Part shown: one piece after another, positions 15,408-58,014 of the stretch
Numbering within the stretch: position 1 is the stretch's first letter
Layout of the letters: each line of letters begins with the position of its first letter
From: Neophaeotheca triangularis
Lineage: Eukaryota
Length of the DNA: 64,000 bases
NCBI GenBank assembly: GCA_054600435.1
Contig: BAAIJX010000040.1
Span: 62,001 to 126,000 of the forward strand
Reading direction: 5' to 3'
The notes under the pieces: generated by a model
Database searches by the model: none
Told to the model about the DNA's origin: nothing
What the model saw: the letters and a program-made list of their open reading frames with translations, nothing else
Program-made: the position numbers and the translations under genes

Positions 15408-16078
15408 TCACCGCCTCTTAACAGCAAACGGACTCCCCTCAGCCGCCCCGGCCGGATCAAAAGCCAAGAGCGTCGTAAAATACAACCCAACAAACCTAAC
15501 CAACTTCGCAACCCACCCAGCCCTCTGCGCAAAACCCGCAGGACTAGCAAGCAACCCCCCCACATCCAAACCCCCCAAACCAAACCCAGCACCGACACCC
15601 CCGCTCCCCCTTCCAGCCCCAGAAGACACCCCCTCACCCCCGAGCGTCCGCCCCTTGCTCTCAAAAACCGCCGCCCCCTCCTTCGCAGCCCTGGCTTCCG
15701 CGCCCGCAACCGCGGCTCTCAGCGCCGCCACGTTCGCGCCCCGCACCGTCTCCACTACTGAACTGCCTTTGAGGACGAGGAAGGTGGGCATGGCGCTGAT
15801 GCCGTAAGTGCTGGCGATTTCGCGCTGGTCGTCGACGTTGACTTTGCAGAAAGCGAGTTTGCCCGGTTTGGAGGAGGAGGCGAGGGTGTTGAAGACGGGG
15901 GAGATTTGTTTGCAGGGGCCGCACCACTGGGGGCTTGGGGTTAGCTGGATTTTCTATTTAGGGGAGGGATTGGGGGGATGCTTACGTCTGCGTAGAAGTC
16001 GATGATGGTGTAGGTGTTGGAGGTTGTGAGGGTCTTGAGATGGGCGGGGGAGGTTATAGGGACGACCTTGGAGGCCAT
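15408..16078 (-). CDS. Thioredoxin with a C-terminal extension; exons 16078-15986 and 15926-15408
   Basis: MASKVVPITSPAHL...IIDFYAD|WCGPCKQISPVF...FCKVNVDD...ISAMPTFLV...VRGAN after removing a 59-nt GTAAGC...CTAAC...CAG intron (15927-15985). Tail contains FESKGRTLGG and hydrophobic LVRFVGLYFTTLLAFDP. Confidence 0.9.
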
Positions 16079-19846: not shown

Positions 19847-21660
19847 TCACGAGATAAAACTCCACACGTTGATGAGCGTTGTGTAAACCATGGCGACGAA
19901 TCCGAGCAAAAAGAGCGAGATGTCGAGAGCTTTAGTCCAAGGCCTATCGGCTACACCGTAGTAATGGAGCAACGGCGGGTAAATGTAAACGAGCGGCACG
20001 CAGGCGAAGGAACCGATGATGGCGACGAATCTAGCAGAGCGTATTAGCATTGACAGTATGCAATCGTGGAAATTCGTTAGTACAGGCGGACTCACTTGTC
20101 GAGATCGGCAGCTCCGACGATGGAAATCAATACCACTGCCACCATCATTCCTACCCTCAGCGCGTTCTTCTTCCACTTGGTGGCGAGCGAGCGCTTGCCA
20201 GTGGCCTTCTCGCCAAAGAGCGAAGTCTCGATGATGCGGACGGCAGGGAAGAGCTGCACGGGGTTGCCAACTAGCACTGCCAAACAGTACAGGAATTGAA
20301 CGGAGTTTACCAGGGGAGAATCCTGCGGGTAGTTGCTGATGACCTGGATCATGGTATCCTCGCCAAAAGTCGCGTAGCAAAGCGCACCAACGGAGGTGAA
20401 GATGGCCGTGATGATGAACATGATGATGTAGAGAAGCATCGGAAACTTCTCGGGTTCAGCCATGCTGGATTGAATGGGTAAGAGTAGGCCAATCCCTTCA
20501 AAGGTGAAGATTGCACTGCCAATCGTGAGTGTGAAGCTCGCAGGGTTGAACAGCGTCACACTCTTGTCCATGCCACGGAAGGCCAGAGCGCCAATGTCGT
20601 ACCACCAAATGTATACCAGACCGATCAGGATGAAGACGTCGGCGAGCAGAGCCGCCGGCCCGAGCTTCGAGATGTTGCGGATCAGCGCGAGAGGCACCAG
20701 AATTACGAGTTGCAAGGCGATGAGACCGGTGATATCAACTGGGATAGACCGGTTCTTGGTAATAGCATCCAGGAAGGCATACAGGTTTTCGGCTGTGAAG
20801 ATGATACCGGCGCAGACGAAACCCAGCTGGGAGAGCGTGATACTCGCAAGCACCAAGGAGCGGAGCCGTGGGCCAACAATGGCTCCAGCCAACTCTCCAT
20901 AACCTCCACCATACTTCTTACGTGCCTGTAGTAGCAATCTAAAGCAGACGGTGGAGATGATAGAGACCATGATAAGAGTGATTGACGAGAACAGAATCCC
21001 GCCGTTCCTGAAGGCCTTGGGCAGGAACATGATGCCAGTCCCGATGAAGGCCTTGAGTAGCGTGAAGAACGTCTTGGTGGTCGATGCATCCCCTTCCTTC
21101 TTCGGCCGGCGAGAACTCTTCCTTCTGCCAAGGAGGGGTCTACGCTCCGACGGCTGCTCATCGTCACCGTCGTCGATAGCAGACTCGTCGTCGTCGTCGT
21201 CGCTGTCGCGGAGATCTTCACCGGCAAAGCTTCCATACAGCTCGAGGAAGGAGATAAAGTTGCTAGTCACTGGCGCGGCACTGAGGGTCCTGTGCAATCC
21301 TTTGCGCTGCATGTGCTGTCTTCTGAAGCCTCCTGGTAGCCGTTGCTCGTTTACCGCTAGTACGTCTTCATCATCGTGGAGGCGAGGGAGTACGCCAGTT
21401 CCTGCAAATGTAGCAGATCTTTGCGGAGCCTTGGCTCTGGCTTTGACCTTGAAGATATCACGATGGATGTCGCCACCCTGCAATTTAAGTGAGGATTCCG
21501 CGGGGGTGTCGCTCAGATTTGGGGCTGAAGCACTTCCTTGGTCGCCAACACCACTGGCAACAACATTCGGTTCAGCGGAGTAGCCATCCGGGAGGTAGGT
21601 GTCGACGATTTTGGCGTCACGCCTAACGGTCGAGTTGCTGCTTGCGGGGGTGTCGGTCAT
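19847..21660 (-). CDS. Vacuolar amino-acid transporter (AAAP family, Avt3/Avt4-like); exons 21660-20096 and 20030-19847
   Basis: SSLKLQGGDIHRD, PGGFRR, FLELYGSFAGEDL, LLKAFIGTGIMFLPKAF, FTFEGIGLLLPI, DLDK|FVAIIGSFACVPLVYIYPPLLH; 65-nt intron at 20031-20095. Confidence 0.9.
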
Positions 21661-27767: not shown

Positions 27768-29441
27768 ATGTCCTCCTCTACGCGAGGTCCGAGACACCAC
27801 ACCCAATGTATTCATCCCAAGCCACTCAAACTGACTTGCCTACCGTAGAGGCCGCCTCAGACATCCACACTCAATTCCGCAACGCCCACGAAGGCCACAA
27901 ACCGCACGCCGGTCTCGACCCAAGCCGCGCTTCCACGGGAGTCGTCTGGACGACTGAGCGCGCCTACGAACACGGCTTTCTCGACGACCCATCGGCATGG
28001 GCGAACCTGGGTCAAGGTGCGCCACAAGTCGACGATGGGATCGAGGGCTGCTTTGAGCGGCCTAAGCATATTGATGTCTCCCTGACTGGACGCGAGTACG
28101 GGCCTACGGCGGGTATCAAGCCGCTCAGACAGGCTGTCGCGAGGCTCTACAACGAGCATCATCGTCAAGGTAAGGAGAGTCAGTACACTTGGGAGAATGT
28201 CTGTATCGTGCCTGGTGGTAGGGCTGGATTAATCAGAATCGCTGCCGTGCTCGGAAACGCGTGAGTCTAATCCACATCCTTTCAAGCCTTTCCTCTGAAG
28301 GTAGGGAATTTCTGAAATGCTCATATTTCTGATTGTACAGCTATCTGGGCTTCTTCATTCCCGACTACACGGCCTACAATGAAATGCTCAGCCTGTTTAA
28401 GAGCTTCGCTGCTATTCCTGTGCCCCTCTCTAAATCGGACAAGTACCACATTCACCCCGAAAAGATCGCGGACGAGATCTCGCGCGGAACCAGCGTCATT
28501 TTAACTTCCAACCCGAGGAACCCGACTGGAAAGGTCGTCAACAATCCCGAACTGGCTGAGATTCAGGACATCTGTCGCGATCGTGCCACCCTCATCATGG
28601 ATGAGTTCTACGGTAAGTGAGAATCATGCGCCCATTGTCAATCGTGGCCCTCCCCCCAAGCAGAGCCACTGGCTTACAGGGATTCTCCTCAGGCGGCTAC
28701 AACTACACAACCTCGTGCGACGGCACCGTAATCAGCGCAGCCGACAACATTCACGACGTCAACGGCGACGACGTCCTCATCATCGACGGCCTGACCAAAC
28801 GCTTCCGCCTACCCGGTTGGCGTGTGGCCTGGATAGTCGGACCCAAGGACTTCATCAAAGCCATCGGTAGCTGTGGCTCGTACCTCGACGGCGGCACCAA
28901 CGTACCCTTCCAAGAAGCTGCCATACCTCTGCTCGAACCGGCAAAAGTGCGAACCGAGATGCAAGCCCTGCAACACCACTTCTGCTCCAAGCGTGATTAC
29001 GTCGTGCAGCGATTGGAACAGATTGGTTTCCGCTTGCCGTATATCCCCGATTCGACATTTTACATGTGGCTGGATCTGGAGTTGCTCCCAGAGTCGATCA
29101 ATGATGGTTTGAAGTTTTTTCAAGCGTGTTTGGAGGAGAACGTCATTGTCGTGCCGGGTATATTTTTCGACCTCAATCCTTCACGCCGGAGAGATTTGTT
29201 CGACAGCCCTTGCCATCATTTCGTGAGGTTGTCGTACGGGCCGAAGATGGAAGTTTTAAAGATGGGTCTGGACGGTATCGAGCGTGTTGTCAAGAAGTGA
29301 GTTTCAACCGTATCCTCTGTTCTCGAACGTTCCTCGTTGACAAAATTCTCCAGACACGGCGGTTTTGCCATGGACAAAGCGACAGTCAAGCAGGAGGGTC
29401 CAGAGAAGACGACCACAGCAGGCCATGGCGAGCACCACTAA
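27768..29441 (+). CDS. PLP-dependent class I/II aminotransferase; exons 27768-27786, 27849-28260, 28341-28612, 28693-29296, 29354-29441
   Basis: WANLGQGAP, EYGPTAGIKPLRQAVA, ILTSNPRNPTG, MDEFY, PLP lysine in DGLTKRFRLPGWR, VPGIFF, VRLSYG. Introns restore frame; first and last exons are less certain. Confidence 0.88.
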
Positions 29442-31449: not shown

Positions 31450-32169
31450 TTACCCCATTGCCCCAACGACACCAGCAACAGCAACAGCAACCACAACCCT
31501 CTTGACACCCCTCACCCTTCCCTCGCCCACGCCTCCCGTAGCCGTAGCCGCAGCCGCAGCAGAAGCTTCCAACTTCTCCGCCCCGGCCGTCACAGGCACC
31601 ATCTGGAAATTCCTGCTGGCCTGGTCGCCCGTCCAGACGCGAGTGGTGGTGCTCGTCGTCGCCGTCTCGGTGAGCGAGAACCCGAGCTGGATCGTGCAGT
31701 CGACGCTCGTCGTGCCGGCGAGTTTGCACGACTGGTCGACGGTGAGCTGGGCGCTGGAGGTTTCGATTTCGGATTGGATGGACAGGGCGCTGGGGCCTTG
31801 GGTCAGGGTTAACTGGGTTGGGTGTTAGTTGGGAGGGAGTGGGTGGTGGGAGGTGTTGGGTCGGGGGGACAAGCGCACGGTTGCTTCGGGGTTGCAGAAG
31901 TTGGGGTCGCCTTTGGTGCAGACGATGGCGTAGGTGGTGTCGCCGCCGGCTTGGGCGTCGATTACCGAGGCTACGAAACTTCTGTCCGTGTTGAGGAGGA
32001 GATTTGCGCTTGTTTGAGCCGGGACAGAGGAGAAGGAGGCGGTTGTTGTGGCGGTGGCCGTGGGATTGGGGGTTATGGAGGCCAGATCAATGGATGGGGA
32101 GGCGGATTGAGCATGGGTTTGGAGCGCCAGGGCGAGCGCGCTGGTTACGAGGAGGGTTGGTGTGAACAT
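31450..32169 (-). CDS. Secreted Ser/Thr-rich protein, probably GPI-anchored; exons 32169-31879 and 31812-31450
   Basis: Signal peptide MFTPTLLVTSALALALQTHA; ASVIDA..TTYAIVC..C..|LTLTQGPS...SCKL..TTSVDCT...VPVTAGAEKL; hydrophobic end VVVAVAVAGVVGAMG. 66-nt intron GTGCGC...CTAAC...CAG. Confidence 0.8.
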
Positions 32170-41459: not shown

Positions 41460-43757
41460 TCAGACGTTCGACCCGGGCTGCTTGGGCTGCTCTGACTGCT
41501 GCTCCACCTCGACTCGCTCAATCCTCTCGGCGTCGCCCTTGTCCATGTTCTTCTCGTCCACGACCTCGACCATGCTCTCTTCATTCCTGGGAGCCGCGAC
41601 GGCGTGCGCGACGCTCGGGTAGTGCTTCAGCGTGTCGGCGCCCACGTCGCCGGCGCTCGTCGTCAGGCCGTCGAGGATTGTGAAACCGCAACGCTCCATG
41701 CGGACGATGCAGTACTCGGAGAGGCCGACGAGACGGCACTCGACGCTCTTGCCGCCGTACATTTTGAGCTCTTTGAGGAAGTTCTTGAGGTTCGAGACGG
41801 CGGTGACGTCGAGGTGGTTGCAGCGCTTGAAGTCGAGGACCACGAGGCCGATCGGGGGCAGCATGCTGGCGTCGGTGATGTTGGCTTTGCGCCGGAGACG
41901 CTTGACGCGCTGCTCGCCTGCTACGGACCAGTTGCGCTCGGCTTCGGAGCCGTTTAGGGCGCTGTAGGTCGGTTGGTGGTAGACTTTGATGCTTTCGACT
42001 AGGTTGGTCTTGTTCTTGTTGGCGTTGGCGAAGAAGAAGTTTTCTTGGAAGCGGAAGACGCGGACGTCGGAGGGGAGCACGGTGGGCACGCCCTGGGCTT
42101 CGATGAGGGATTGCTCGAGCTCCGAGGCGTGACCCCCATCGCCGCCAGTCTGCTTGATGGGGCGGAAGACCTGGCGCAGGAGGACGTAGACGATGTTGAA
42201 GCCGACCGCGACTGCAAGACCGATTTCGGTGTTGACGAAGAGGCAGACCCAGAGAGCCAGCATTGAACTGATAAAGTCTGCTAAGCTCTGCTTCCAGTAA
42301 TTATGGAAGGTTGAGGGCGGGCTGATGAGTGGCCAGACAGCGCAGATGATAATGGCGGCGAGAGTGGCCTTGGGGATCCAGTAGAGGGCTGAGGACAGTT
42401 CGAACATGCAGACGATGACGACGGCCGTGGTGACGAGACCTGAGAGCGGCGACTTGACTTTGCAGGAGGAGTTGACGGCGGTACGCGACATGGCGCCACC
42501 GGTACCCATGGCCTGGAAGAAGCTGTTGAAGAAGTTACAGACACCGAAATAGCAGAGCTCCTGAGTCTGGTCGGAGACGTAATTATTCCTCACACCAAAC
42601 GCGCGGGCGATGGCGACGTGCTCGACGGCCGCGCCGATGAACACGGCGATACTGCGGGGAATGGTCATGCTAATGAGTTCTGGTGGGGGCATTGCGGGCG
42701 TGCCAATGCCGTCGGAGTTGACCTCGACGATCTCGAAGAGATAGTCCTCCTCGGCACGGCCGCCGTTGACGGCGTACGAAATGCCGGTGAAGAGGACGAG
42801 GCAGAGGAAGGCACGGGTGATGGTGACGAACCAGAGGATCTTGTTCTTGTCGCCGTAGCGTTTGCCGACTTTTTCGATGATGGTGAGGAATATGATACCG
42901 CCGAAACCGATGGCACATGCGTAGCCGTTGGCTTGACCTAATTGGGCGAACGTGTCTCGTATCTGGAAGAGTCAACGAAGGGTTCTTGACGATTGATCTG
43001 CACTGCAATAGGCTTACCTGTGCCGCAGTGCCGTCGCCAATGTTCGTCTGGCCGAGCAGACTGTCCATTTGGTTCAGGATGATAGTGATGGCGATGGCGG
43101 TGATGAAACCGTTGAGGACGGGCAGAGAGATGAATTCCAGCAAGAATCCGAGCTGGGAGTCTGTTAGCGGTTGGATCATTCTTGCAGCTCACAGCCTCAA
43201 CGAACCTCAAGGAAGCCGATGAGGATACCGAAGATACCCATGCAGCAGGCGACGGCGGAGGCGATTTGCTGAGGGGTGTAATCCGTATCGTGCAAGCTTT
43301 CGACAACTTCAGAGGTCAACAAGCCGATGAGCGAGGTCGGACCCATGGAAAGATCTGTCGTCGTTGTCAATGTCGATTCACGATGCCTCTAGACGTCGAT
43401 TTGCTTACCTTTGGTCGAGCCCATGAAGGCGTAGAGGGTAGCCGGGAACCAACTCGAGGACAGACCGTACTCGACCGGGATTGTGGCGATTTTTGCGTAG
43501 GACAGACTTTGAGGGATGAGCATCAGACCGAGCGTGAGGCCAGCAATCGCATCGTTGATGATCCATCTGGGGTTGTATTTCGGGAGCCAGCCGATAATGG
43601 GGACTTTGTTCTGAAGGTAGACGACTGATCCGCCAGGGAGGGCGCGAGCACCGTCTTTGGTGACTTGGGCAACGCGGTTCCAGTTGTAGTCTTCCCGTAC
43701 ATTCTGGTAGGCGTCTTCGGCGTAGCCTTGAGGGCTCTTCTTGAAGGGGTTCTTCAT
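41460..43757 (-). CDS. SulP/SLC26 sulfate permease with STAS domain; exons 43757-43409, 43354-43206, 43152-43018, 42962-41460
   Basis: WLPKYN..DAIAGLTLGLMLIPQSLSYA, GSTK|DLSMGPTS, LGFLLEFISLPVLNGF, EHVAIARAFG, GAMSRTAVNS, WIPKATLAAII, STAS segment VVLDFKRCNHLDVTA. Confidence 0.92.
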
Positions 43758-46579: not shown

Positions 46580-48457
46580 TGGGCTTGACGGGTTGGTGGT
46601 GCCCGTCTGACGAGTGCAAGTAGCCCTCTTCGCTGTCGTGTCGGGCGGTGTTGTAAAGTGTTCGCCCACGATCGTTCATCCCCTCTGGGGCACTATTCAA
46701 ACGAGCCAGCTTCGTTCGGTTCACGTAGAGCAGTGTATGAAACGTTCCCATTATTCTCACTCAATCCTTTCATGCTATCCTTTCATGCTATCAAAGATCA
46801 GTTGCTCGAGTTGCCTTACCCCTGACTTTCCTGTCTTGTTCGATCAATTCGACTGCCGGCTGTCAATCACGAGAAACGCGGTCCACGATCCTATCGCTCG
46901 CACTGTGTTGACTCCGTCTCTTCGAGCCTCCTCGACAAGCGAGCCGGCGCCTTGCGCGTTGTACACCTACTACGGACCTTCCCTGCCGTCGTCGACTCTT
47001 CAAAGGCCGGTCCGGCGTGACGCCGCTCGATGCCATCCCTCGAAGACGCCGTCGACCTCCTTCAGACCGTCGAGTAGGAGGGATTAGTTCATAGACAAAG
47101 GAGAAGATGACCAAGATCCCGTCGATGGTAGACTATGTCCTACGCTCCTCGTTTGTCGGCTGTCCTTGGTCACGAAGAACTGAGGGTTGGAAGGTGAGGG
47201 TGACTCTGCGGATAACGAACGACTTGAGAACAACGCTGGTGGGTCGAAATCCACGCCCTCATAGTAGAACAAGAGGGCCCTGAACCCTGTTGTGCTAGGA
47301 CGTCTCTTCATTCGGCATCGTCATGACACTATTAGGTCCTCCTCGATAATGTGACGCTCATCAGACCGGTCCCTTCGTAACAATCAACAGGCAGATGACT
47401 CGGCTCAATAGCAAGATAAGGACACTGAACTGAGGTAATCGCCGCCGTCGGCGGCGCACCATCAAGCAGTCCAACTAGACTATGAGATGATTTCGTCGAT
47501 TCCTTCAATGTCGTCAAGGAGTTAAATCAACAGAAATCGTCGACGGTCAGACAATGCGCCCGTGGCGTCTAACGAGGAATCACACCTACAACAGCTTGTG
47601 CGTCAGCGATGCAACCATAAGTCGATGCTTACAATCCACCTTTCCATCGAAACAGCGTACCTCAACAATCCTAGTCATCACTCAGTCTTACACGCTCATC
47701 GATAGTTCCTGCTCTTACCTTCGGTAGGTATCGGGTCACCGAGACCACGGGTGAAGGCGTAATTCGTCGCGTTTCTTTGATGCGAAACCTTTGAGCGATT
47801 GAGGTTCACTCAAGGAGGGCAGACGATGCCCAGCAGAACTTCGTCCGTAGCGTCTACCGCTCTCCTACTTGGGCTCGTGAGCAGATGGCCATGAGATGGC
47901 GAGGGTTTACGGCGTCACAACCTAAGGCGAACAATCTGTGAGTCAAACACAGCGACGTTGTGAGCTTCTCTCACACGATTCGAGGCTTGCGCCAGGCTGT
48001 CTTTTTGCCTCTGTACCGAGCGTGGGTATTGCACAACCAGAGACGGCTAGACAACGATCTGATGTCTTTAGTCTTCGTTCCTGGCTCTCTCGAAGACCGT
48101 TCCGGTGATGCCGAATCGGTCTTTGTCGCCAATCTCAAAGAACTCCATTGTATCCATGACCAGCTGTTCTGAGGGCACTTTGTTCTCATTGTGTCGATTC
48201 TTTATCACACACAAAGCCATTGTCCTGCGCGGAGACTCCAGCAAACGGAAATTTAAAGCAGTCGTCGCACCCATCGACCAAATCTTCTTGATTCCTCAGA
48301 CAGTCGGTTGATCGAGAACAAGAACGAGGTCTTCAGGTAAGTCCTCGCCTAACCCCCAAAGAAACTAACCAATTCTTCCAGCCCAGCAGAGCCCCTTCAC
48401 CTCAACCCACGCACCCACACACCCACACTCTCACACTGTCACGCACCCACCCAAAGA

Positions 48458-48991
48458 ATGGCCTCCTCCAACAACTGCCACGCTCACCAACCCAACTATG
48501 ACTACAGCGCAGCACCCTGCCAACGCCTCATCCTCGACTACCGCCATTGCGTCCACAAATACGTCGAGCCCATCCGCTGCGGCCACCGCTTCTGCCTCGA
48601 AAACCCCGCCCACTACCACCCGGGCCTGATCCCCGAAGACATCGACAACTGGTCCAACGCCGTCTTCAAACGCAAGCTCTTCTGGAGCAAATGCCGAGAC
48701 TGCGAGCTGCGCGACCAGGAGAGCGAGTTCGAAAGCAAGAAGCGCGTTTACGGACAACTGCTGGATTCCGGGCGCGAGCTGGATGATCCCATGCTTGTGG
48801 ATGCGGGGCGCGTGTGGGCGCAGGCGAGGGTGCTGAGGGATCGTAGGGTTGCGCACATTGCGAGATTCGCTTGGGATACGACGGACTGGGAGTGGGTGAG
48901 GACTTATGAGGGTCAGAGTCTGCCTGGGTGCGCGACGCCGAGTCCGGAGCGGTTGGCTGAGCCGGGGGTGTTTAGGGCGCCGAGGAGGTAG
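48458..48991 (+). CDS. Small Cys/His-rich hypothetical protein, possibly zinc-binding
   Basis: 177-aa ATG-initiated ORF with C..(Y)RHCVH..CGHRFC..CRDC, coding-like codon bias and no signal peptide. Confidence 0.65.
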   Translation: MASSNNCHAHQPNYDYSAAPCQRLILDYRHCVHKYVEPIRCGHRFCLENPAHYHPGLIPEDIDNWSNAVFKRKLFWSKCRDCELRDQESEFESKKRVYGQLLDSGRELDDPMLVDAGRVWAQARVLRDRRVAHIARFAWDTTDWEWVRTYEGQSLPGCATPSPERLAEPGVFRAPRR

Positions 48992-50396
48992 GTAGGGGGT
49001 GGTGTTTACGAAGGCTAGGGGTTTGGCGTTGGAGTGCTCATGGGAGGCGGGATGGCGCTGGCGCCTTCGCTAAGGTAGGTTGGCTGCGTTTTCCTATGTC
49101 TTTCCTTTTGTCGGGTATTGGGATAGATCGGGTTGGCTGTTTCGCTTTAAGCACGTAAGTTCTATAATCATCACTGTCTCTGGGTATTATCATCATTCGA
49201 AGTTTCGTTATTTTCGCTTTTCTCGAATAAGTGTTAGTGGTCCGACGGGGTAAGGTAGCTGTCTATTGCTTCTTGCTGGTAACGGCGACTGTGACAATGT
49301 AAAACTCGTATCCAACGTTGCTTTTCAAGAAGCTCTCCTTCACTGAAAGTGTCATTGCTAGAGCAGCGAGAGTAGCTAGCCCCATGTCAATTTCATCAAA
49401 TTCTTGTTCAGACTCGAGCTCGTCGTTGCAATTTGGGTCCTTAACTGGACGCTGTGTCCAGCATCAGCGAAAGGTAAATACTAGGAAGCAACCAGAACAT
49501 GGAAAGGCGTCTCAGCAGACATCTGGCACTTCGTCTCCAAGAAAAATCCGCTCTCCGACCAGCCTACTGCTCTCATGCACCAACAGCAATGGAACACTTA
49601 CCTACGCGAAACCCCCATAGAACTTCCAAAGACGAACACCTTGGTGCAAACATAAGTCCGCGTTTTCTTAATACATACTAATGTTTTTACAAGTGTTTTT
49701 GGTTCACGCCCTCGCGCTTTTTCCGTCCCCTCGAAGAAACCACAACCATCCCCATGTACTCGCTTTCAGGCACACACTGTCGCACCTTCGACATTCCAAA
49801 AAGCTCCAGCACTCACGATCAAGATCATCGCGTCCTCTCAGCCACCACCCAACGAGCCCAAAGCTCCTCACCACGCACTAGGCGTGGTCGGCGCGCTCTT
49901 AGAAGTCTTGTCATGCCCTTCAAGCAGCAGATAGAGATTGTCAGCGCGGTGTTCAGAGCCAGTTCGTGGTAGCTCAACGGCGGCCGTTGTTGCGGCGGCT
50001 CCGCCAGTTGCGGGAGTTGTTCTTACCACTGCCGCTTCTGCGCCGGGTTTGGACGTTGTCTTCGGAGTCGCCGTGGTCGATTATGCCATCGTCTTCGGCG
50101 CCGTCGTTGGCGTAGAGGTTTTCCCCGCCGTCTTCGTAGGAAGCGCGATGGGCATTGTTGCTGCGGTGGTGGTTGTAGCCATAGCTGTCGCCATAGCTGC
50201 TGCCATACGAACGGGGGCCGGCGTGATCGAAGGTCGAGCCATAACCTTTGCGAAGCGAGTCGGCGGGGCCGCGTGGAGCCTGATACAAGCTCGGCTCTCT
50301 GTTCGAACTTGGCTCTCTATCATCGCGAACATCTCTAGCATCCCTTCCAAGCCTTGCTTCGTAATCTGGGCGATCAACAGGGGCGTCATCAAGCTC

Positions 50397-53300
50397 CTAG
50401 CCATTAGCGCCGCCATCGTTCTGCCCGCCCATCTGACCACCCTCGCCACCGCGCATCCTCTTCTCGTCGCCGGTATGCTCAGTTGGGTTACTTCTCTTCT
50501 GGCCCGCGTTGGCAGCCATGCCACCACCACGCTGAGCACCACCACCTCGACCGCCGCGAGGAAGGCCGGAAGCGTTGCCGCCGCCGCGCCCTTGCGAATG
50601 TCCGCCGGCGCGCGGGAGGCCGGAAGCGTTGTTGGCGCCTCGGTTGGCAGGGCCTGGGAGTCTGCTGCCAGCTGGTTGGGGAAGACCGGAGCCACGACCT
50701 GGACCGGGTCCGCCTTGCTGCGGCTGCTGCTGTTGGTTGGAAGCACCTGCGAAGTTGAAAGAGGGCGCAGTGGGATTCTTGCCGGGCTGACCAAAACTGC
50801 CTTGACCTTGGGGCTTGGCTGGCAAACCAGCCGAGGGCTTGCCAAAAGAACTTCCCATGGTCATGGACGGAGAAGGCTGTTTCACAGCGCCGAAGCGAGC
50901 AGCGCGCTCTTGCATCTTCTGCTGTTCAGAGCTCTGCGGTTGTGGTGCTTGCTGTGGAGTTCCCTGTTTTTGTTGGGTTTCAGACTCTTGAGATGGTTCA
51001 GCAGCAGGGGCAGCTTGAGCAGCAGAGGTGGGAGTCTTGGTAGGCGACTGTTGCTCGATGTTAGTCGCGGATTGCTTCCTGTCAGTGTTCGTCTCCGCGC
51101 TGCCAGTAGTCTCCTGCTTCACCTGAGTGGAAGCCGGAGCAGGTGAGCTAGCGGAGCCACCAGTCTTGGAAGCAGTAGAAGGCGTCGCTGGAGCAGGCTT
51201 CTGGGAGTTCGGCAGCGGAGGCGCCTTGACCTTGGCCGCAACGTCGAAAGCTGGCTTGAGAGGCTGGTCGGGGGCCTCCTTGACGGCGGCTTCGAGAGCC
51301 GTCCACTGGGCCTTTGCATTTCTACCTACAGCGACAAAGACGTCTTTCTTCTTGCTCTCCATGAGTGCCTGCTGCTTCTCCTTGGCAAGAGTTTCCTTTT
51401 CGGCGTTGAGCGTTTCCTTTTCGGAATTGAGCGTCTCGAGCTGCGCTTTGAGTTCGTCGCGCTCGCGAGTGACAGACTCGAGCTGCTGGCGGAGCAAGTC
51501 GCCGTCGTCGGAAGGCGATGCGTTCTTGATGTCCTGCTCGAGCTGAGCGATCTTGGCATCTTTCTCCGCGATGAGCTGTTCGCGTTGAGCCTCGAGCTCT
51601 GCGATGCGGGCACGATGGGTCTCAGAGTGCTTCTTGACGTTGTTCTGAATCACCGTACGCAAGAAGGGGCTCCTCTTAAGCAAGTCCCTAGCCTGCTCGT
51701 CGGTTAGTTCAGAGTCGTCAGAGCCCGCCTTCGGCGGCGCCGTCGCTTCGGATTGATCGCCTGCCTCTCCCTCAGCCACGCTCTGGCCAGCGCTGGCCTC
51801 CGTGACCCTCTTAAGCTCTGCTTCAAAGTCCACCTTCAACTTCTCAACAGCCGCCGCGTGCTCCTCCTTCAACTGGACAACCACTGCATCATGCTCTTCG
51901 CGCAACTTCTGCAGCTCGGCGTTGTGTTCATCTTGAGACTCTGTCGTTAGCGTCTCGCGGTACTGTTTGCGCTCCTCCTTCAGCCTCTCACGAAGTTGGT
52001 CCTTCATCCTCGCAATGCGCTCGTCGCGGTTTTGTTCCACCTGCTTGATGGCTACTTCGTGCTGGGCTTCCAGTTCTTGCCGTAGCTTTGCACACTCCTC
52101 GGCAACCTGGTCGGCCACGGATCGCTCGCCTTCGGCAGGTTCGGCATTGGTCGTAGTAGAGTCGCCAGTGGATGCAGCGTTCGCGCGGAGAGCCTCGAGC
52201 TCTTGCTGTGCGGTCTCGAGCTGGCTGCGGACATTCTCCAGGAGGTCAACATCCTCATTCGACTTGGAAGTTTCGGCCGTAGCTTCAACCTGCGTGTTGG
52301 CACTTGCAGACTTTGCGGTCTCAAGCTCGCCCTGCAACTGAGTAGCCTGGTTCTGCAGCTGCGACACCTGGCCCTCGAGCTCTTGAACACGCGTTTGCAG
52401 CGTTTGAACTTCGACAGACAAAGCCTCTGCACGCCCAGAGTGGTTGCTGGCATGTTGTTCAGCCTCCGCAATGCGCGCGTGCAAAGCAGCGTGATCTGAC
52501 TCGCCGTCCTCGTTGACCTCACCCTCCTCTTGTCCTCCAGCATTGACAGAAGCCTTCGCCCTAGCGTCCTCCAGGTCCCTCTGCGCCTGCTCCAGCTCTG
52601 CAACCTTTGCCGCCAATTGTCCATCTGTCTCTTCCTTAGCCGCATTTGCGGTGGCGACCGACGCATTCGCAGCTTCGACATTACCACGCATTTCAGTCAG
52701 ACGCTCGTTTTGCTTCCGATTCTGCTCTTTAGCCTGAGCCTTGAACTTGGTCAAAGTCTCCGAATGCTTGGCCGTCGCCTCTTGCACAGCCGTGGCGACT
52801 GTAGCGTCAAAAGCCTCGATCTTTTCTCGGAGAGGAGCGGTCTCTGCCTCCAGACGCACTTCAAAGGCATCAATCTGCTCCTGCAACGGCACCCGCTCGT
52901 TCTCCAGGCGCTCCTTGTCGGCCTCCAGGTCTGTGATTTGCTGCTTGATACGAGTCAACTCCTCGGCGTCGACGACACCATGCTTGTTCATGAGCCTGTG
53001 GGTACGATCGCGCCAGTTGTTGCGGTCCTCGGTCGTCAAACGCAGATCTTGATCCTTGTATTCCATGTTGGTTTCCAGCTCGAAAACCTGCTGCTTCAAT
53101 GGTTCAAGCTCTTCGCGAAGTTTCTCGACTTCCTTCTCCCGAGCCTCAAGCTTCTCACGGGTCCTGCGGGCTTCGTCGCGGAGGTGGACAGTGCTCTCGC
53201 GGTAAGTGTTCAGCTCTCGCAGAGTCTCCTCGAGCTGGGAGAAGACGGTTGGGTTGCTAATCTTCGCCTCGGAAGCCCTAATCTCCTCGCGCAGCTTCTC

Positions 53301-56300
53301 ACGAGCCTTCTCCATCTCATCCCTGGCGTACTGGAGCTCGTGTTGATAGCGGCGCGAATCGCGCTTCTCCTTGTCGTGATTGACTTGCAGCATCTCCTTC
53401 TCGCGGCGAAGGTAGTCGATCACGGCTTGCATGCCGCTTTCGTCATGCTGGTAAGCACTTGCAGGACCACCGGTTAAGGAATTCAGACGGTTTTGGCGAA
53501 TGGTTTCGAGCTCTGAGGCATACTTCTTCAGCTGATCGTGCAGGTTGTTAATATGATCATCGGCCGAATCCTTCCTCATACGAGCATCGCGAAGCTGCTC
53601 TTCGAGTTGTTCCTGAAGACCCTCCCAGTTGTTCTTGGCGGTGTCAAGCTCGTCCTTAGCGGTCATGGCGGCCACCTTGAGTTCGTGAGACTTCTCGCGG
53701 AGTTCGTTGTACTCCTTCTTCGTGTTGTTCAGAGACTGTGTGGCCTCCGCGTGGCGAACGAGCTCTTCCTCATAGTGAGTCTGCGCGGTCCGCGCAATCT
53801 CGCCTTGGGCTTTAAGATCCTCCACAAACGCCTTACGCTCTTCGCTGAATCGTGTAGCGTCGTCTTCGAGCTTGACGATCTTGGCCTCGAGTGTGCGTTT
53901 CTGCTCAGCAAAGTCGCGATTGCTATCCTCTTGCTGTTCCTTGAGTTCAGCCAGCTCGCTGTTGGCCTGAGTCAACTCGGTAGTGAGATCAACAACGCGC
54001 TGCTCAAGCTCTGCGATGCGAGCATCCTTGGTAGCAATCAGTTCATCCATCTCCTCCTGATAGGCTTCGCTGGACTCGTTCAGAGCATCGAGATCTTCTT
54101 GAGTTTGCTTGGCAATTTGGTTCATGTTGTTGTACTGCTCACGCGAACGCTCGAGGTCTTCTTCGGCGTAGCGCAGTTTAGTCTTCAGGTCATCGACTTC
54201 GGAACGACGACGCTCCTCCACCTCCCACTCGTCGTCCTGAGGCTGGAAGTACCGCAATTTGTCTTGAGCAGCGGTGAGCTGAGTAGACAGCTCGTCGATT
54301 CGGGCCTGCTTCTCCGCCTTGACGCCGTCGAAATTGGAGATTTGCAGGCGGAGAGGCTCGATAGTCTTCATCATCTCATCGCTGCGGTCGCGGAAACGCT
54401 GCTTCTCGAAGGCATACTTCTCAGACTCTCGCTTCAGTTCCGCGGCGAGCTCACTGCGTTCCTTTCTGACTGTGTCCCTCTCTTCCTTCACCTCCTTGAA
54501 CTGGTCCAAGGTGGTACGCATCGCCTCGTCATGCTGTAGGTTGCGCTCGCTTGACAGACGCTCCACATCTTGAATCTTGCTCTGCCACTCCTCGCGCTCG
54601 GTACGAATCTTCTCCAGGTCAGAGATGGCATGCTGCTTCGCGTCTTCCAGTGTCTTCTGGTGGTCTTTGAGGCTTTCGATCTTCTGCTCAAGACTGGAAA
54701 CCTTGGCTTTGAACTCAACCACGTCTTCTGAAAGTGCAATAGCCTTGAAGTCGAGAGCCTTGTTATGGTTCTCGAGCTCATGTGAGTGCTTGCGAAGCTC
54801 GGTGTGCTCGGCTTGAAGGGCTTTGTAGTTGTCGGTGTAAACGCTCAAACGACCTTCGGCGGAGTAGACTTGGCCCTGGGCCTTGGTAAGTTCGGCTTGC
54901 ATATTGTTGAGCTCGGTCTTGAGAGCGTTCTCTTTCTCTCGCATCTCCTTGTAGGCGTTTTCGCGGAAATTGTCGAAGGCAATGGTTTGCTCCTTCAGCA
55001 CTTGAGCCTGAGCTTCAGCCGCTGCTTGGGCGGCTCGAGCTGTCGACGGGGTTTGGGGAACTGCAGGCTCAGACTGGTTCTGCGGTCCTGGAGTAGTAGG
55101 CGCGGCACTCTGACCGAACAGCTGATGGATGTCGTCCTGGTTCATGCCATCGGGAAGACGGCCACGACTCTTGAGGATGCGACGGTACATGTTGCGCTCT
55201 TGTACATAGCTTTCGACGGTCGTGAGAAGCGACTCGGCTTGCTCCTTGTAGTACTCCCGACTCTTCCTGAGACTCTCGGTCTCTTCGCCGTCTTGCTCAA
55301 CTCTGCGGTTCTTCTCTGCCTTCATGGCGTCAACCTTCTCGGCAGCGTCACGCACAGTCCTGAGCAGGCGCTCGTTCTGTTGTTGCATCTGGGTGGCAGT
55401 TCTGAAAGCGACGAGGTTCTCGCTAACGAAGCGAGTCCCGTTGTCAGGGTCGAGAATGTCGAGTGTCGCGTTGTCGAACTGGCCACGGGCGGCACGCTCC
55501 AGAGCGACGCTCTCGTCAAAAGTCGGCTCGGCCATGCCTTGTTCCCGGCGAATTTGCTCAGTAACGAGGAGCTTGATTTGAACGCAGTGGTCGCGAAGTT
55601 GTTGGCTCTTCAGCTCGTTCTCGCGCGCAAACCCGGCGGCCTCATCCCTCCAGCGGCCTTCAGCCTTCTTCGCCTCATCACGAGCCTTGTGCGCTTCTTC
55701 GAGCGTCAAAGAGTACTGGTAAACTTCATTCTCCAAACGCTCTTGCTCTTCCCTCATCTTCTCAACGTCTGGCTTCCGCGCCTCCAGCTCATTCATCATG
55801 TCCTCCAAGCTCTTCTGCAGTCGCTCACAACGTCGGCCCTCTGCAGCAAGCTCTTCGGTCAGATCGTTATTCTGGTCGGAGAGTTGCTGCCAAGAAAGCT
55901 CATGCTGAGGACGCCCTGTCCTGGAGTTCATGGGAGTGCCGGCTTGGGAGGCGTTGAATTTGGACGGCGTTGGTTTGCTGGATTTGAACATCCTGGAGGG
56001 TGTCATCTTGGACGGGGTCGCAAAATGGCTGCTCATGCGCCGATTTGCGATAGTGGCCTGGCGAGGTGTGCGGAGCGAGTCCTGGAGCTGCTCTTCGAGG
56101 TCCTTGACTTTGATCTCAAGATCGGCAACTTTCTGGTAGGCGTCGTTCTTGCTTGCATTCTCCTCGTCAATGTCAGCCGTCAGCTGCCCAAGCTCCTTCG
56201 TGTAGTCCTGACGTTGCGATTCCAGCTCCTTTTCAAGCTCTTGAACGCGGCCTTTGTGGGTGCGAGCGTTTTGTTCGTGCAGCTCTGCAAGGCGCTTAGT

Positions 56301-57206
56301 GGAAGCTATGTCCTCGCGCAGGTTGCGCTCGTTAGTCGCAGACTTCTCCTGCAAGGCTGTGATTCTTGCGTAAGCCTCCTCAGCTTTGGTCTGCATCTCG
56401 TCAAGGCGCTTGCGAAGACCTGACTCGGTACGCTTGAGATTATCCGTGTTGGTGGTGGCATCCTCAAGTTCACGCTCAAGTTCAGCAAGGCGGGCATTGC
56501 GCTCCTTGCGGTACTTGGTGTGGTCTGCGCCACGGGTCTCAAGCTCAGTTGCCTGCCACTCGGTGTGCTGCTTCAGCTGAGTAATCTCTTGCTGTAGCCC
56601 TTGCTCTTTGAACTTCTGAGAGGAAACCGAGTTCTCGAGAGACTGATTGCGCTCTGCCAGGCTGCTAACCTCGCGACGGAGAGCAACCAACTTTTCATGC
56701 TGTTCCTTGAGCTCAGCGTTCATGCTATCCTTCTCGTTGGCCCGGCTCTCCATAAGGTTCTTCAAGTCGAGATTGCTAGCCTCGAGCGTATCAATCCTTG
56801 AGCGAAGAGCTCCTGCCTCTGCGGTGCTGCCGGATGAAGTAGCCTGAAGGGTGTCGAGCTCCTGGGTGAGGTTGTCGACCTTGGCGTTGGCTTCGGTGAG
56901 CTGAGCTTTGGTTGTCTTGAGCTCGTCCGCATGCTTGGTGATGGTAGCTTTCTGCGTCTTGGCTTTGTTTTCGGAAGTGCGAACAGCATGTTCGAACTCG
57001 ACCTCCACACGGAGCTTCTCAGACTTTAGCTTTTCCATGTCTTGAGCTTTGTGAATAGCTGCCTCAATGAAGGTCTTAGCCCCATCGGCAGTGGGATTGT
57101 TGAGTAGGTTCTTGACATCTTCTTCGCCCAGTTCGAAGCAATTGGCGATGTACTGCGTGTCCGCGATGAGGTCCGACCCATCGGCCGCCTGCGCGCGGGT
57201 GCGCAT
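50397..57206 (-). CDS. MLP1: Nuclear basket coiled-coil protein Mlp1/Tpr
   Basis: About 2269-aa intronless coiled-coil ORF from ATG 57206. Contains SENLVAFRT..MQQQNERLL, AQTHYEEELVRHAEA, VIDYLRREKEML, ELNTYRESTVHLR, WRDRT and a disordered RGG-containing tail. Confidence 0.9.
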   Translation of the reverse strand: MRTRAQAADGSDLIADTQYIANCFELGEEDVKNLLNNPTADGAKTFIEAAIHKAQDMEKLKSEKLRVEVEFEHAVRTSENKAKTQKATITKHADELKTTKAQLTEANAKVDNLTQELDTLQATSSGSTAEAGALRSRIDTLEASNLDLKNLMESRANEKDSMNAELKEQHEKLVALRREVSSLAERNQSLENSVSSQKFKEQGLQQEITQLKQHTEWQATELETRGADHTKYRKERNARLAELERELEDATTNTDNLKRTESGLRKRLDEMQTKAEEAYARITALQEKSATNERNLREDIASTKRLAELHEQNARTHKGRVQELEKELESQRQDYTKELGQLTADIDEENASKNDAYQKVADLEIKVKDLEEQLQDSLRTPRQATIANRRMSSHFATPSKMTPSRMFKSSKPTPSKFNASQAGTPMNSRTGRPQHELSWQQLSDQNNDLTEELAAEGRRCERLQKSLEDMMNELEARKPDVEKMREEQERLENEVYQYSLTLEEAHKARDEAKKAEGRWRDEAAGFARENELKSQQLRDHCVQIKLLVTEQIRREQGMAEPTFDESVALERAARGQFDNATLDILDPDNGTRFVSENLVAFRTATQMQQQNERLLRTVRDAAEKVDAMKAEKNRRVEQDGEETESLRKSREYYKEQAESLLTTVESYVQERNMYRRILKSRGRLPDGMNQDDIHQLFGQSAAPTTPGPQNQSEPAVPQTPSTARAAQAAAEAQAQVLKEQTIAFDNFRENAYKEMREKENALKTELNNMQAELTKAQGQVYSAEGRLSVYTDNYKALQAEHTELRKHSHELENHNKALDFKAIALSEDVVEFKAKVSSLEQKIESLKDHQKTLEDAKQHAISDLEKIRTEREEWQSKIQDVERLSSERNLQHDEAMRTTLDQFKEVKEERDTVRKERSELAAELKRESEKYAFEKQRFRDRSDEMMKTIEPLRLQISNFDGVKAEKQARIDELSTQLTAAQDKLRYFQPQDDEWEVEERRRSEVDDLKTKLRYAEEDLERSREQYNNMNQIAKQTQEDLDALNESSEAYQEEMDELIATKDARIAELEQRVVDLTTELTQANSELAELKEQQEDSNRDFAEQKRTLEAKIVKLEDDATRFSEERKAFVEDLKAQGEIARTAQTHYEEELVRHAEATQSLNNTKKEYNELREKSHELKVAAMTAKDELDTAKNNWEGLQEQLEEQLRDARMRKDSADDHINNLHDQLKKYASELETIRQNRLNSLTGGPASAYQHDESGMQAVIDYLRREKEMLQVNHDKEKRDSRRYQHELQYARDEMEKAREKLREEIRASEAKISNPTVFSQLEETLRELNTYRESTVHLRDEARRTREKLEAREKEVEKLREELEPLKQQVFELETNMEYKDQDLRLTTEDRNNWRDRTHRLMNKHGVVDAEELTRIKQQITDLEADKERLENERVPLQEQIDAFEVRLEAETAPLREKIEAFDATVATAVQEATAKHSETLTKFKAQAKEQNRKQNERLTEMRGNVEAANASVATANAAKEETDGQLAAKVAELEQAQRDLEDARAKASVNAGGQEEGEVNEDGESDHAALHARIAEAEQHASNHSGRAEALSVEVQTLQTRVQELEGQVSQLQNQATQLQGELETAKSASANTQVEATAETSKSNEDVDLLENVRSQLETAQQELEALRANAASTGDSTTTNAEPAEGERSVADQVAEECAKLRQELEAQHEVAIKQVEQNRDERIARMKDQLRERLKEERKQYRETLTTESQDEHNAELQKLREEHDAVVVQLKEEHAAAVEKLKVDFEAELKRVTEASAGQSVAEGEAGDQSEATAPPKAGSDDSELTDEQARDLLKRSPFLRTVIQNNVKKHSETHRARIAELEAQREQLIAEKDAKIAQLEQDIKNASPSDDGDLLRQQLESVTRERDELKAQLETLNSEKETLNAEKETLAKEKQQALMESKKKDVFVAVGRNAKAQWTALEAAVKEAPDQPLKPAFDVAAKVKAPPLPNSQKPAPATPSTASKTGGSASSPAPASTQVKQETTGSAETNTDRKQSATNIEQQSPTKTPTSAAQAAPAAEPSQESETQQKQGTPQQAPQPQSSEQQKMQERAARFGAVKQPSPSMTMGSSFGKPSAGLPAKPQGQGSFGQPGKNPTAPSFNFAGASNQQQQPQQGGPGPGRGSGLPQPAGSRLPGPANRGANNASGLPRAGGHSQGRGGGNASGLPRGGRGGGAQRGGGMAANAGQKRSNPTEHTGDEKRMRGGEGGQMGGQNDGGANG

Positions 57207-58014
57207 CTTGTCGCGTTGGCCTGTTTGCCGCCAGTCGTGGTGTACGCTTCGGGAGTTCACACTAATGGATGATTCAGCAGTGCGGTAGATCGTACCGTGC
57301 AGGTAGCGTGAATGAGCGTAGGAATGCCAGACAGGCGTGAAGGTGCAGGTGTTTGGGTTTGAGAGAGGGAGTAGAGGAAGTGAGGATGTTTAGAAGGCGC
57401 GTTGCTGAAGTGGAGCTTTCGCTCCCGAAATCTAGATGGTCCGTGCCTGGAGCTCACTTGACAGAACTCTTGGTGAAGACAAACGGCGGCAAGGTCACCA
57501 TGTATTCTCGAACAATCAGATACGCCCGGTCGTGGAACAAACCAATCTGATGGCTAGATTGTAGGGTTCTGTAGCCATCCGGTCGATATTGCACCGCCAT
57601 CTCCACGTAAACGAGAGCAGTGGACATACCTTGTCTTTGTTGCTGCACGGAACTTGAGGCCGCATTCGGGAGGGTTCGCTGCTTCACCATTCACATCAGT
57701 CGCACCATCACCACTACTTCATACCACACCACCAATACCCACGCCGCAATCCAAGTGGCTGCAACACTTTCAAATAACCATCAGCGTCAGATTGCAGGAA
57801 GTCTATCTGCTACCCGTTCCCATCACGTGAGCTGTTGCGCTAGGCATAGCCGTGACTGCTGACTGCCTGGACCTCTTCACTGAATCATCCAGGACTGAGG
57901 ACACTGCCCGCGCCAAACCACTCACGACTCTCTTGCCATCTGCCGCGTCCAACACTCGCCGTAAATCCCACTCGAACACTCCTTGGTGCACCACCAATCT
58001 CCGCCATCACCAGC

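Follow-up and report, generated by a model that had tools for sequence, protein, structure and literature searches.

A coding-like tail behind the conserved stop codon of the MLP1/TPR gene of Neophaeotheca triangularis and its possible connection through a facultative in-frame intron

Introduction

The established routes by which one gene gives rise to C-terminal isoforms are the retention of introns that contain a stop codon, readthrough at UGA-CU, and stop-loss editing of UAG. Retained or alternative in-frame introns of this kind give two C-terminal isoforms in eukaryotes, fungi included, and the leaky context of a UAG codon is of the CAR-YYA type. Here we analyze a stretch of 64,000 nucleotides (nt), hereafter the window, from the genome of Neophaeotheca triangularis, a black yeast of the Dothideomycetes (GenBank assembly GCA_054600435.1, contig BAAIJX010000040.1, positions 62,001 to 126,000, forward strand). 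On its minus strand lies a gene for a nuclear-basket protein of the MLP1/TPR type that ends with a TAG codon, behind which the same reading frame remains open for another 140 codons (the extension). The last 102 of these codons (the tail) have the signature of coding sequence, and we tentatively propose that they are reached by removal of a 72-nt in-frame intron that contains the TAG.

Like the stop-containing introns that may be retained, this 72-nt segment runs from GT to AG, is a multiple of three in length, and lies in the last coding exon, where it encloses the stop; its donor is weak, and the sequence behind it is coding-like in frame. It differs from them in that its interior is preserved at the protein level in a relative, the 28 codons after its acceptor are not coding-like, and its use is here a prediction. 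If facultative use is true, the gene would be another instance of a stop-containing retained intron.

In the available part of the report on readthrough (PMC4207609), UGA-CU(A G) is given as the efficient motif, UAG lowered readthrough, and readthrough at the motif yields peroxisomal isoforms in fungi and animals. The MLP1/TPR gene is similar to these cases in that an in-frame C-terminal extension, and with it a potential second isoform, stands behind a conserved stop. In contrast to them, its stop is TAG-GAG, its extension of 140 residues ends in GRR, and downstream structure was not found.

The accessible portion of a report on adenosine-to-inosine (A-to-I) stop-loss editing (PMC13123824) describes the conversion of UAG to UIG in FgDBF2 and hundreds of other genes of Fusarium graminearum and Neurospora crassa. 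A UAG embedded in a hairpin is the substrate there, and the products carry disordered tails; editing was surveyed in RNA sequencing of the sexual stage, the signals are reported within the Sordariomycetes, and three extensions of 11–27 amino acids (aa) are given. As in FgDBF2, the UAG of the MLP1/TPR gene has its A in a predicted hairpin loop and is followed by a disordered-looking extension. The host, however, is a Dothideomycete black yeast, and the extension has 140 codons.

Results and Discussion

The MLP1/TPR gene and the frame behind its stop

The open frame that holds the gene comprises 2330 codons (50397..57389, minus strand), and the protein that it encodes from the ATG (P0007, Table 1) ends in ...GGQNDGGANG. 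Three Pfam families were detected in it, namely TPR_MLP1_2 (E-value 1.9e-24, 86.5 bits), TPR (TPR-like; 1.6e-13, 51.4 bits), and Nucleoprot-TPR (1.8e-12, 47.6 bits). Because all three exceed their gathering cut-offs (36, 27, and 27 bits, respectively), we annotate the gene as MLP1/TPR; the same three families were found in its homologs.

Behind the TAG, the frame is open for 140 codons (50396..49977) up to a TGA. As had been stated in the original prediction, which started this analysis and quoted the same translation, the extension is devoid of ATG codons; it encodes no Met, and the only ATG, GTG, or TTG in it is a TTG at codon 37. The long open reading frame (ORF) in register on the plus strand, which was said to cross the stop, does so, but it begins at 49935 rather than 49938 (49935..51146, 403 codons), and two further long frames span the region. 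When the 420 nt were shuffled with dinucleotides preserved, the frame remained open in 60 of 5000 cases, and the run past the stop was 0–62 codons in the 14 other long ORFs of the window, compared with 140 in MLP1. Since five of the six reading frames are open for at least 97 codons in this region, length alone is weak evidence of coding, and the openness of the frame exceeds chance only modestly.

A second minus-strand frame (+1) is also open across the end of MLP1 and its stop, for 259 codons (50081–50860). It scores 0.13–0.26 nats per codon over the RGG-rich part at 50523–50762 and is probably a low-complexity shadow.

Coding signal of the tail

Coding potential was scored with a codon model for which 13 long ORFs other than MLP1 served as training set, against the remaining sequence of the window. 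The log-odds of the whole extension in the MLP1 frame were +0.154 nats per codon, close to the +0.17 of MLP1 itself, while the 140 codons beyond the TGA gave -0.40. Cumulatively, the score rose up to about 50384, fell to a minimum at 50276, and then gained 27 nats to the TGA. The claim of the original prediction that the stop is followed by 140 protein-like codons thus holds for the last 100 or so, whereas the first 38 are not coding-like.

Codon statistics are the strong evidence, and by them the 102-codon tail (49977–50282) matches real exons in coding character. Base composition depends strongly on codon position (chi2 83.9, p=5.5e-16), and this periodicity is lost in the 306 nt beyond the TGA (p=0.3). 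Two-fold degenerate codons ending in a pyrimidine (NNY) show C:T counts of 26:8, against 934:316 in the training set, and the z score for synonymous usage is 5.8, against 4.4 for the last 102 codons of MLP1. The sense log-odds amount to +26.7 nats, above 96.6% of MLP1 windows, while the best alternative model, the in-register antisense, reaches +10.2. Segments with such scores are rare elsewhere: outside long ORFs (35,320 bases), no more than 13 merged segments attained at least 20 nats, and these lie at apparent exons of other genes. The only repeat in the tail is a tandem array with a 12-nt unit (2.8 copies, 50174–50207) that encodes SYG/DSYG, and repeats do not account for the coding signal. 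Free of both frameshifts and stops, these approximately 100 codons, judged by their statistics, are still translated in this frame or were so until very recently.

The composition of the tail, which is unlike the Gly/Gln/Pro-rich end of MLP1, would fit an independent small minus-strand gene that has a start of its own, and the length of the 403-codon ORF, together with the score that the antisense model still reaches, would fit a gene on the plus strand. We regard either as very improbable. The TTG mentioned above is the only start-like codon of the tail frame, a search by hand for upstream mini-exons gave only introns of 29–41 nt or poor sites, and the idea of a separate gene was rejected. 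As for the plus strand, the sense model is ahead of the antisense by 16.5 nats, and a gene there would share 750 nt with the coding part of MLP1 and consist of Ala/Val-rich shadow sequence.

A predicted intron that removes the stop

A public protein of N. triangularis NU230, MBLNU230_g5311t1, annotated as a "hypothetical protein" of 2386 aa (P0005), contains the tail. It is identical to the read-through translation of the window save for a 24-residue gap at the stop, and when the 72 nt from 50366 to 50437 are removed from the window, the translation is exactly that of P0005. The extension is therefore already present in the public protein as its last exon, and the sequence taken out comprises the TAG together with the 13 MLP1 codons before it and the first 10 codons behind it. 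The record holds one isoform only, in which the conserved last 13 codons and the stop are treated as intron. Its locus tag has a style that we take to be that of an ab initio gene finder.

Splicing had been dismissed in the original prediction, and here it was mistaken, as this 72-nt GT-AG intron is in frame, removes the TAG, and is the very one used by the public protein. The acceptor-like GCTAATGGCTAG to which it drew attention does overlap the stop, and the donors GTAACC (50491) and GTCAGA (50437) are in phase 1, as it said. That they cannot join the frame is true only when the TAG serves as acceptor; CCCAG at 50366 does join. Altogether, 66 combinations of GT and AG would remove the TAG in frame, made up of 11 donors (all in phase 1, none matching GTRAGY) and six acceptors, among which CCCAG is the only in-phase YAG.

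Reference introns were taken from a crude scan for coding flanks, which gave 44 clusters; seven likely introns (Table 1) were picked from these by hand, partly by consensus, and any comparison with them is accordingly soft. They are 53–80 nt long with a G+C content of 0.46–0.65, the acceptor is a YAG throughout, and the donors comprise GTAAGT, GTAAGC (in three of them), GTGAGT, GTTCGT, and GTGCGC; six of the seven have a YTRAY motif 9–14 nt from the end. The predicted intron fits this group in its length, its CAG acceptor, and its G+C content of 0.625. Of its two branch-like motifs, TTGAT at 8 nt from the intron end fits roughly, and the other, CTAAT, is at 38 nt. Of the donor, only the G at position +5 agrees. 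It appears to be a plausible but weak intron rather than a textbook one.

Other introns were tried and rejected. A GC-AG intron at 50280–50357 and a GT-AG intron at 50280–50378, behind the stop, had poor signals or did not remove the TAG, and an intron of 192 or 195 nt ending at 50246 had an AAG acceptor.

Table 1. Position of the features discussed, in coordinates of the window
Feature	Position	Strand	Basis or remark
Main MLP1/TPR coding exon	50400..57206	-	ATG 57206 to last codon before TAG; 2269 aa (P0007)
TAG, stop of the short MLP1 form	50397..50399	-	Open frame; aligned end of P0006
TGA, stop of the extended frame	49974..49976	-	Periodicity disappears beyond (p=0.3)
Predicted in-frame intron, 72 nt	50366..50437	-	Donor G-GTCAGA, acceptor CCCAG; public gene model
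Conserved basic motif QKR...KRMRG near the C-terminus	50448..50503	-	Aligned in all three orthologs
Linker, in-frame but non-coding-like first part of the last exon of the public model	50283..50365	-	Codon log-odds
Coding-like tail, 102 codons, Q-APRGP...SYG repeats...acidic patch...RRRSGSGKNNSRNWRSRRNNGRR	49977..50282	-	Codon statistics
Probable 3' untranslated region	49683..49973		Contigs of two RNA libraries, also across TGA
Likely short introns (n=7)	15927-15985, 20031-20095, 28613-28692, 31813-31878, 42963-43017, 43153-43205, 43355-43408		Coding-flank scan

RNA contigs at the 3' end

The RNA data are contigs assembled from two metatranscriptome runs, X1 and X2, which hold small parts of the window; they are strandless and may include contaminating DNA. 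A contig of X2, a poly(A) library, covers 49683–49918, and contigs of X1 cover 49750–49917, 49952–50103, and three pieces of MLP1 coding sequence between 52684 and 54080. With 97–100% identity to the window, RNA-library sequence spans the last 127 nt of the tail and about 290 nt past the TGA, which speaks against polyadenylation ahead of the tail. The variants observed were a synonymous change of AAC to AAT at 50019 and a deletion of 1 nt at 49967, just outside the frame. No match to Rfam was found in the region 49000–51000.

Some shorter matches were also recorded, one of 30 nt at 48407–48436 (depth 50, X2) and two of 18 nt at 52311–52328 and 54666–54683, the latter from a single X1 contig of 1170 nt. 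These appear to stem from other organisms, matching by chance or through low complexity.

Conservation of the stop and the case for splicing

Two orthologs were found (P0006 and P0008) in searches that gave two and three proteins, low-complexity words having filled the candidate lists. P0006, an ORF called mechanically in the assembly of a public run, is 72% identical overall; its end, ...KRVRGNEGAMTGGQNENADG, aligns to ...KRMRGGEGGQMGGQNDGGANG of the MLP1 of the window, and both stop immediately afterwards. P0008, a JGI model named nucleoprotein TPR, has 39% identity and ends six residues past KRMRG. This pentapeptide closes the conserved basic motif QKR...KRMRG, which may resemble a nuclear localization signal, and the distance from KRxRG to the protein end is 16 residues in the window and 15 and 6 in P0006 and P0008, respectively. 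The tail thus lies outside the conserved MLP1/TPR architecture. Within the predicted intron, 6 of the 13 encoded residues are identical in P0006, with one 3-nt gap and a common stop, and the 13 codons reach +0.30 nats per codon. At such divergence, alignment at the protein level is not expected of an intron, and the short form, with the TAG as its end, therefore seems ancestral and in use. From these alignments we infer with good confidence that the TAG is conserved and used as a stop.

This sets two well-founded conclusions against each other, since the stop is apparently conserved and used, yet the last 100 codons behind it are fully coding-like in the same frame. A facultative intron of 72 nt is the simplest way to reconcile them. 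The tail would then be the terminal coding exon of the MLP1/TPR gene, reached through removal of the predicted intron, as in the public model. When the intron is kept, the conserved short protein of 2269 aa with its ...GGANG end would be made; when it is removed, the product would be the 2386-aa form with a disordered tail of 117 residues rich in Tyr, Ser, and Gly, in acidic residues, and in Arg. Splicing would probably be partial, because the donor is weak and because the intron codons and the TAG are conserved as a protein end in relatives. Both any use of the intron and its facultative nature are inferred. Our estimate of the probability of splicing into the tail is about 0.45, of which some two-thirds goes to facultative and one-third to constitutive use (odds of about 2:1); a small remainder, beyond the alternatives treated below and above, is left to other readings.

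A number of observations weigh against this proposal. The donor, GTCAGA, differs from all seven hand-picked introns at positions +3 (C) and +6 (A). The RNA contigs of both runs show neither cover nor joints in 50104–52310, the interval that includes the splice junction. The main text of the genome paper (PMC13064199) mentions Illumina DNA sequencing only and names neither an annotation method nor RNA data, and the predicted intron may be a device by which a gene finder skipped the stop. The linker is a further point, as an exon would be expected to look coding. The 28 codons at 50283–50366 score -5.35 nats, lower than all 2242 MLP1 windows and undercut by only 0.85% of 6378 windows of the training ORFs; in the first 38 codons after the stop (50283–50396), the NNY codons have C:T counts of 3:8 and the z score for synonymous usage is -1.36. 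The linker between the stop and the coding-like tail looks non-coding, and for the 28 codons after the acceptor no translated model accounts for this look. A weaker 9-nt repeat also lies in the linker, at 50314–50342.

The homology searches likewise count against splicing into the tail. Apart from the model of the same strain, no relative with the tail was recovered in the ortholog searches (two and three matches). A search of 1.84 billion representatives with the tail gave a single match, P0004, and so did a search among proteins of similar length, with sizes of 245–1325 residues outside the range covered. P0004 is an ORF of 104 residues from another strain, 97% identical, with two substitutions apart from the start. 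It begins at the sole start-like codon behind the position of the TAG; this start would fit an upstream stop in the contig of that strain, that is, the unspliced form, and is a weak hint in that direction. Elsewhere, the tail matched no Pfam family and had no usable match in the ESM Atlas, the only match of tblastn and blastn within the window was the tail itself, and metagenome scans with the C-terminal 173 residues of P0005 and with the alignment of MLP1 orthologs gave no confirmed match.

Much of this would also be expected if the TAG were the sole stop in use, the tail an untranslated in-frame relic of a former exon or gene fragment, and the public intron an ab initio artefact. The orthologs end at or near the position equivalent to the TAG, the donor is weak, the 13 codons within the "intron" behave as coding, the 28–38 codons after the stop do not, the tail has no homolog other than the 97%-identical ORF of the other strain, and the main text of the genome paper cites no RNA data in support of the annotation. 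We nevertheless consider such a relic, the main rival, somewhat less likely than splicing into the tail. It needs both a match of frame (1 in 3) and a stop-free linker of 38 codons (about 0.27 at a stop frequency of 0.034), jointly about 0.09, and it has to explain 102 codons that are free of frameshifts and stops and whose signal exceeds that of nearly all MLP1 windows. Neither the search of representatives nor blast against the window gave a source gene or paralog. If the RNA contigs belong to MLP1, a 3' untranslated region of at least 715 nt would result.

Should splicing be facultative and both forms be made, the cell would have a nuclear-basket scaffold with and without a low-complexity tail of 117 residues, and this tail could alter how the scaffold interacts or how stable it is. 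The black yeast itself is studied for its switch of growth forms. The public protein record, for its part, may represent a minor or non-existent isoform from which the conserved C-terminus has been omitted, a matter of practical relevance to those who use the model for orthology or for protein tagging. The case illustrates how a gene finder can conceal a conserved stop within a predicted intron.

Readthrough and editing of the stop

The TAG could also be passed without splicing. Ribosomes might read through it, or A-to-I editing might convert the UAG to UIG, a codon decoded as Trp; the result would be a conditional extension of 140 residues. The frame is open through the stop and becomes coding-like further on, and the TAG is conserved, as this would lead one to expect. 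The 61 nt around the stop (50368–50428, minus strand) are predicted to form a single hairpin, long and imperfect (-24.1 kcal/mol, z -1.96). Its long stem carries an apical AGG triloop that opens with the A of the UAG (50398); as 8 of 200 shuffles folded equally well, the hairpin is weakly supported. A UAG at the tip of a hairpin resembles the architecture of the fungal stop-loss substrates in the part of PMC13123824 at hand.

In spite of these features, we judge passage of the unspliced stop to be rather improbable. The context, TAG GAG CTT, fits neither the UGA-CU motif nor the CAR-YYA type, and UAG is reported to lower readthrough in the accessible part of PMC4207609. Compared with shuffles, the fold of the 116 nt that begin at the stop is unremarkable (z 0.07). 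All of the 38 non-coding-like codons behind the stop would be translated, and a codon bias as strong as that of the tail would hardly be maintained by a low-level product. As far as editing is concerned, the portion of PMC13123824 considered here reports its signals within the Sordariomycetes, from the sexual stage, and with much shorter extensions.

The original prediction had favored a conditional C-terminal extension that adds a low-complexity, possibly RNA-binding tail upon bypass of the stop. Its idea of a conditional extension was fair, given the conserved TAG, the coding-like tail, and the RNA contigs across the 3' end; the proposed mechanism fares poorly, with a TAG-GAG that is unlike the leaky UGA-CU (PMC4207609, in the part available) and no notable downstream structure. 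The role in RNA binding finds no backing either, as the tail yielded no Pfam family, no usable Atlas match, and one near-identical ORF among the representatives. In its specific form, in which editing at 50398 or regulated readthrough at the conserved UAG conditionally adds a disordered tail of 140 residues rich in Tyr, Ser, and Gly and in Arg, the bypass is improbable. If it were true by way of editing, it would extend fungal stop-loss editing past the Sordariomycetes, the group to which the accessible text of PMC13123824 refers, to a vegetative black yeast.

The downstream neighbor

Downstream of the MLP1/TPR gene lies a convergent ORF on the plus strand that ends at 48991. It occupies 48458–48991, encodes 177 aa starting with MASSNN and rich in Cys and His in the first half, and scores 25.1 nats without a match to Pfam. 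With a coding tail, about 980 nt separate the ends of the two genes; otherwise the distance is about 1400 nt.

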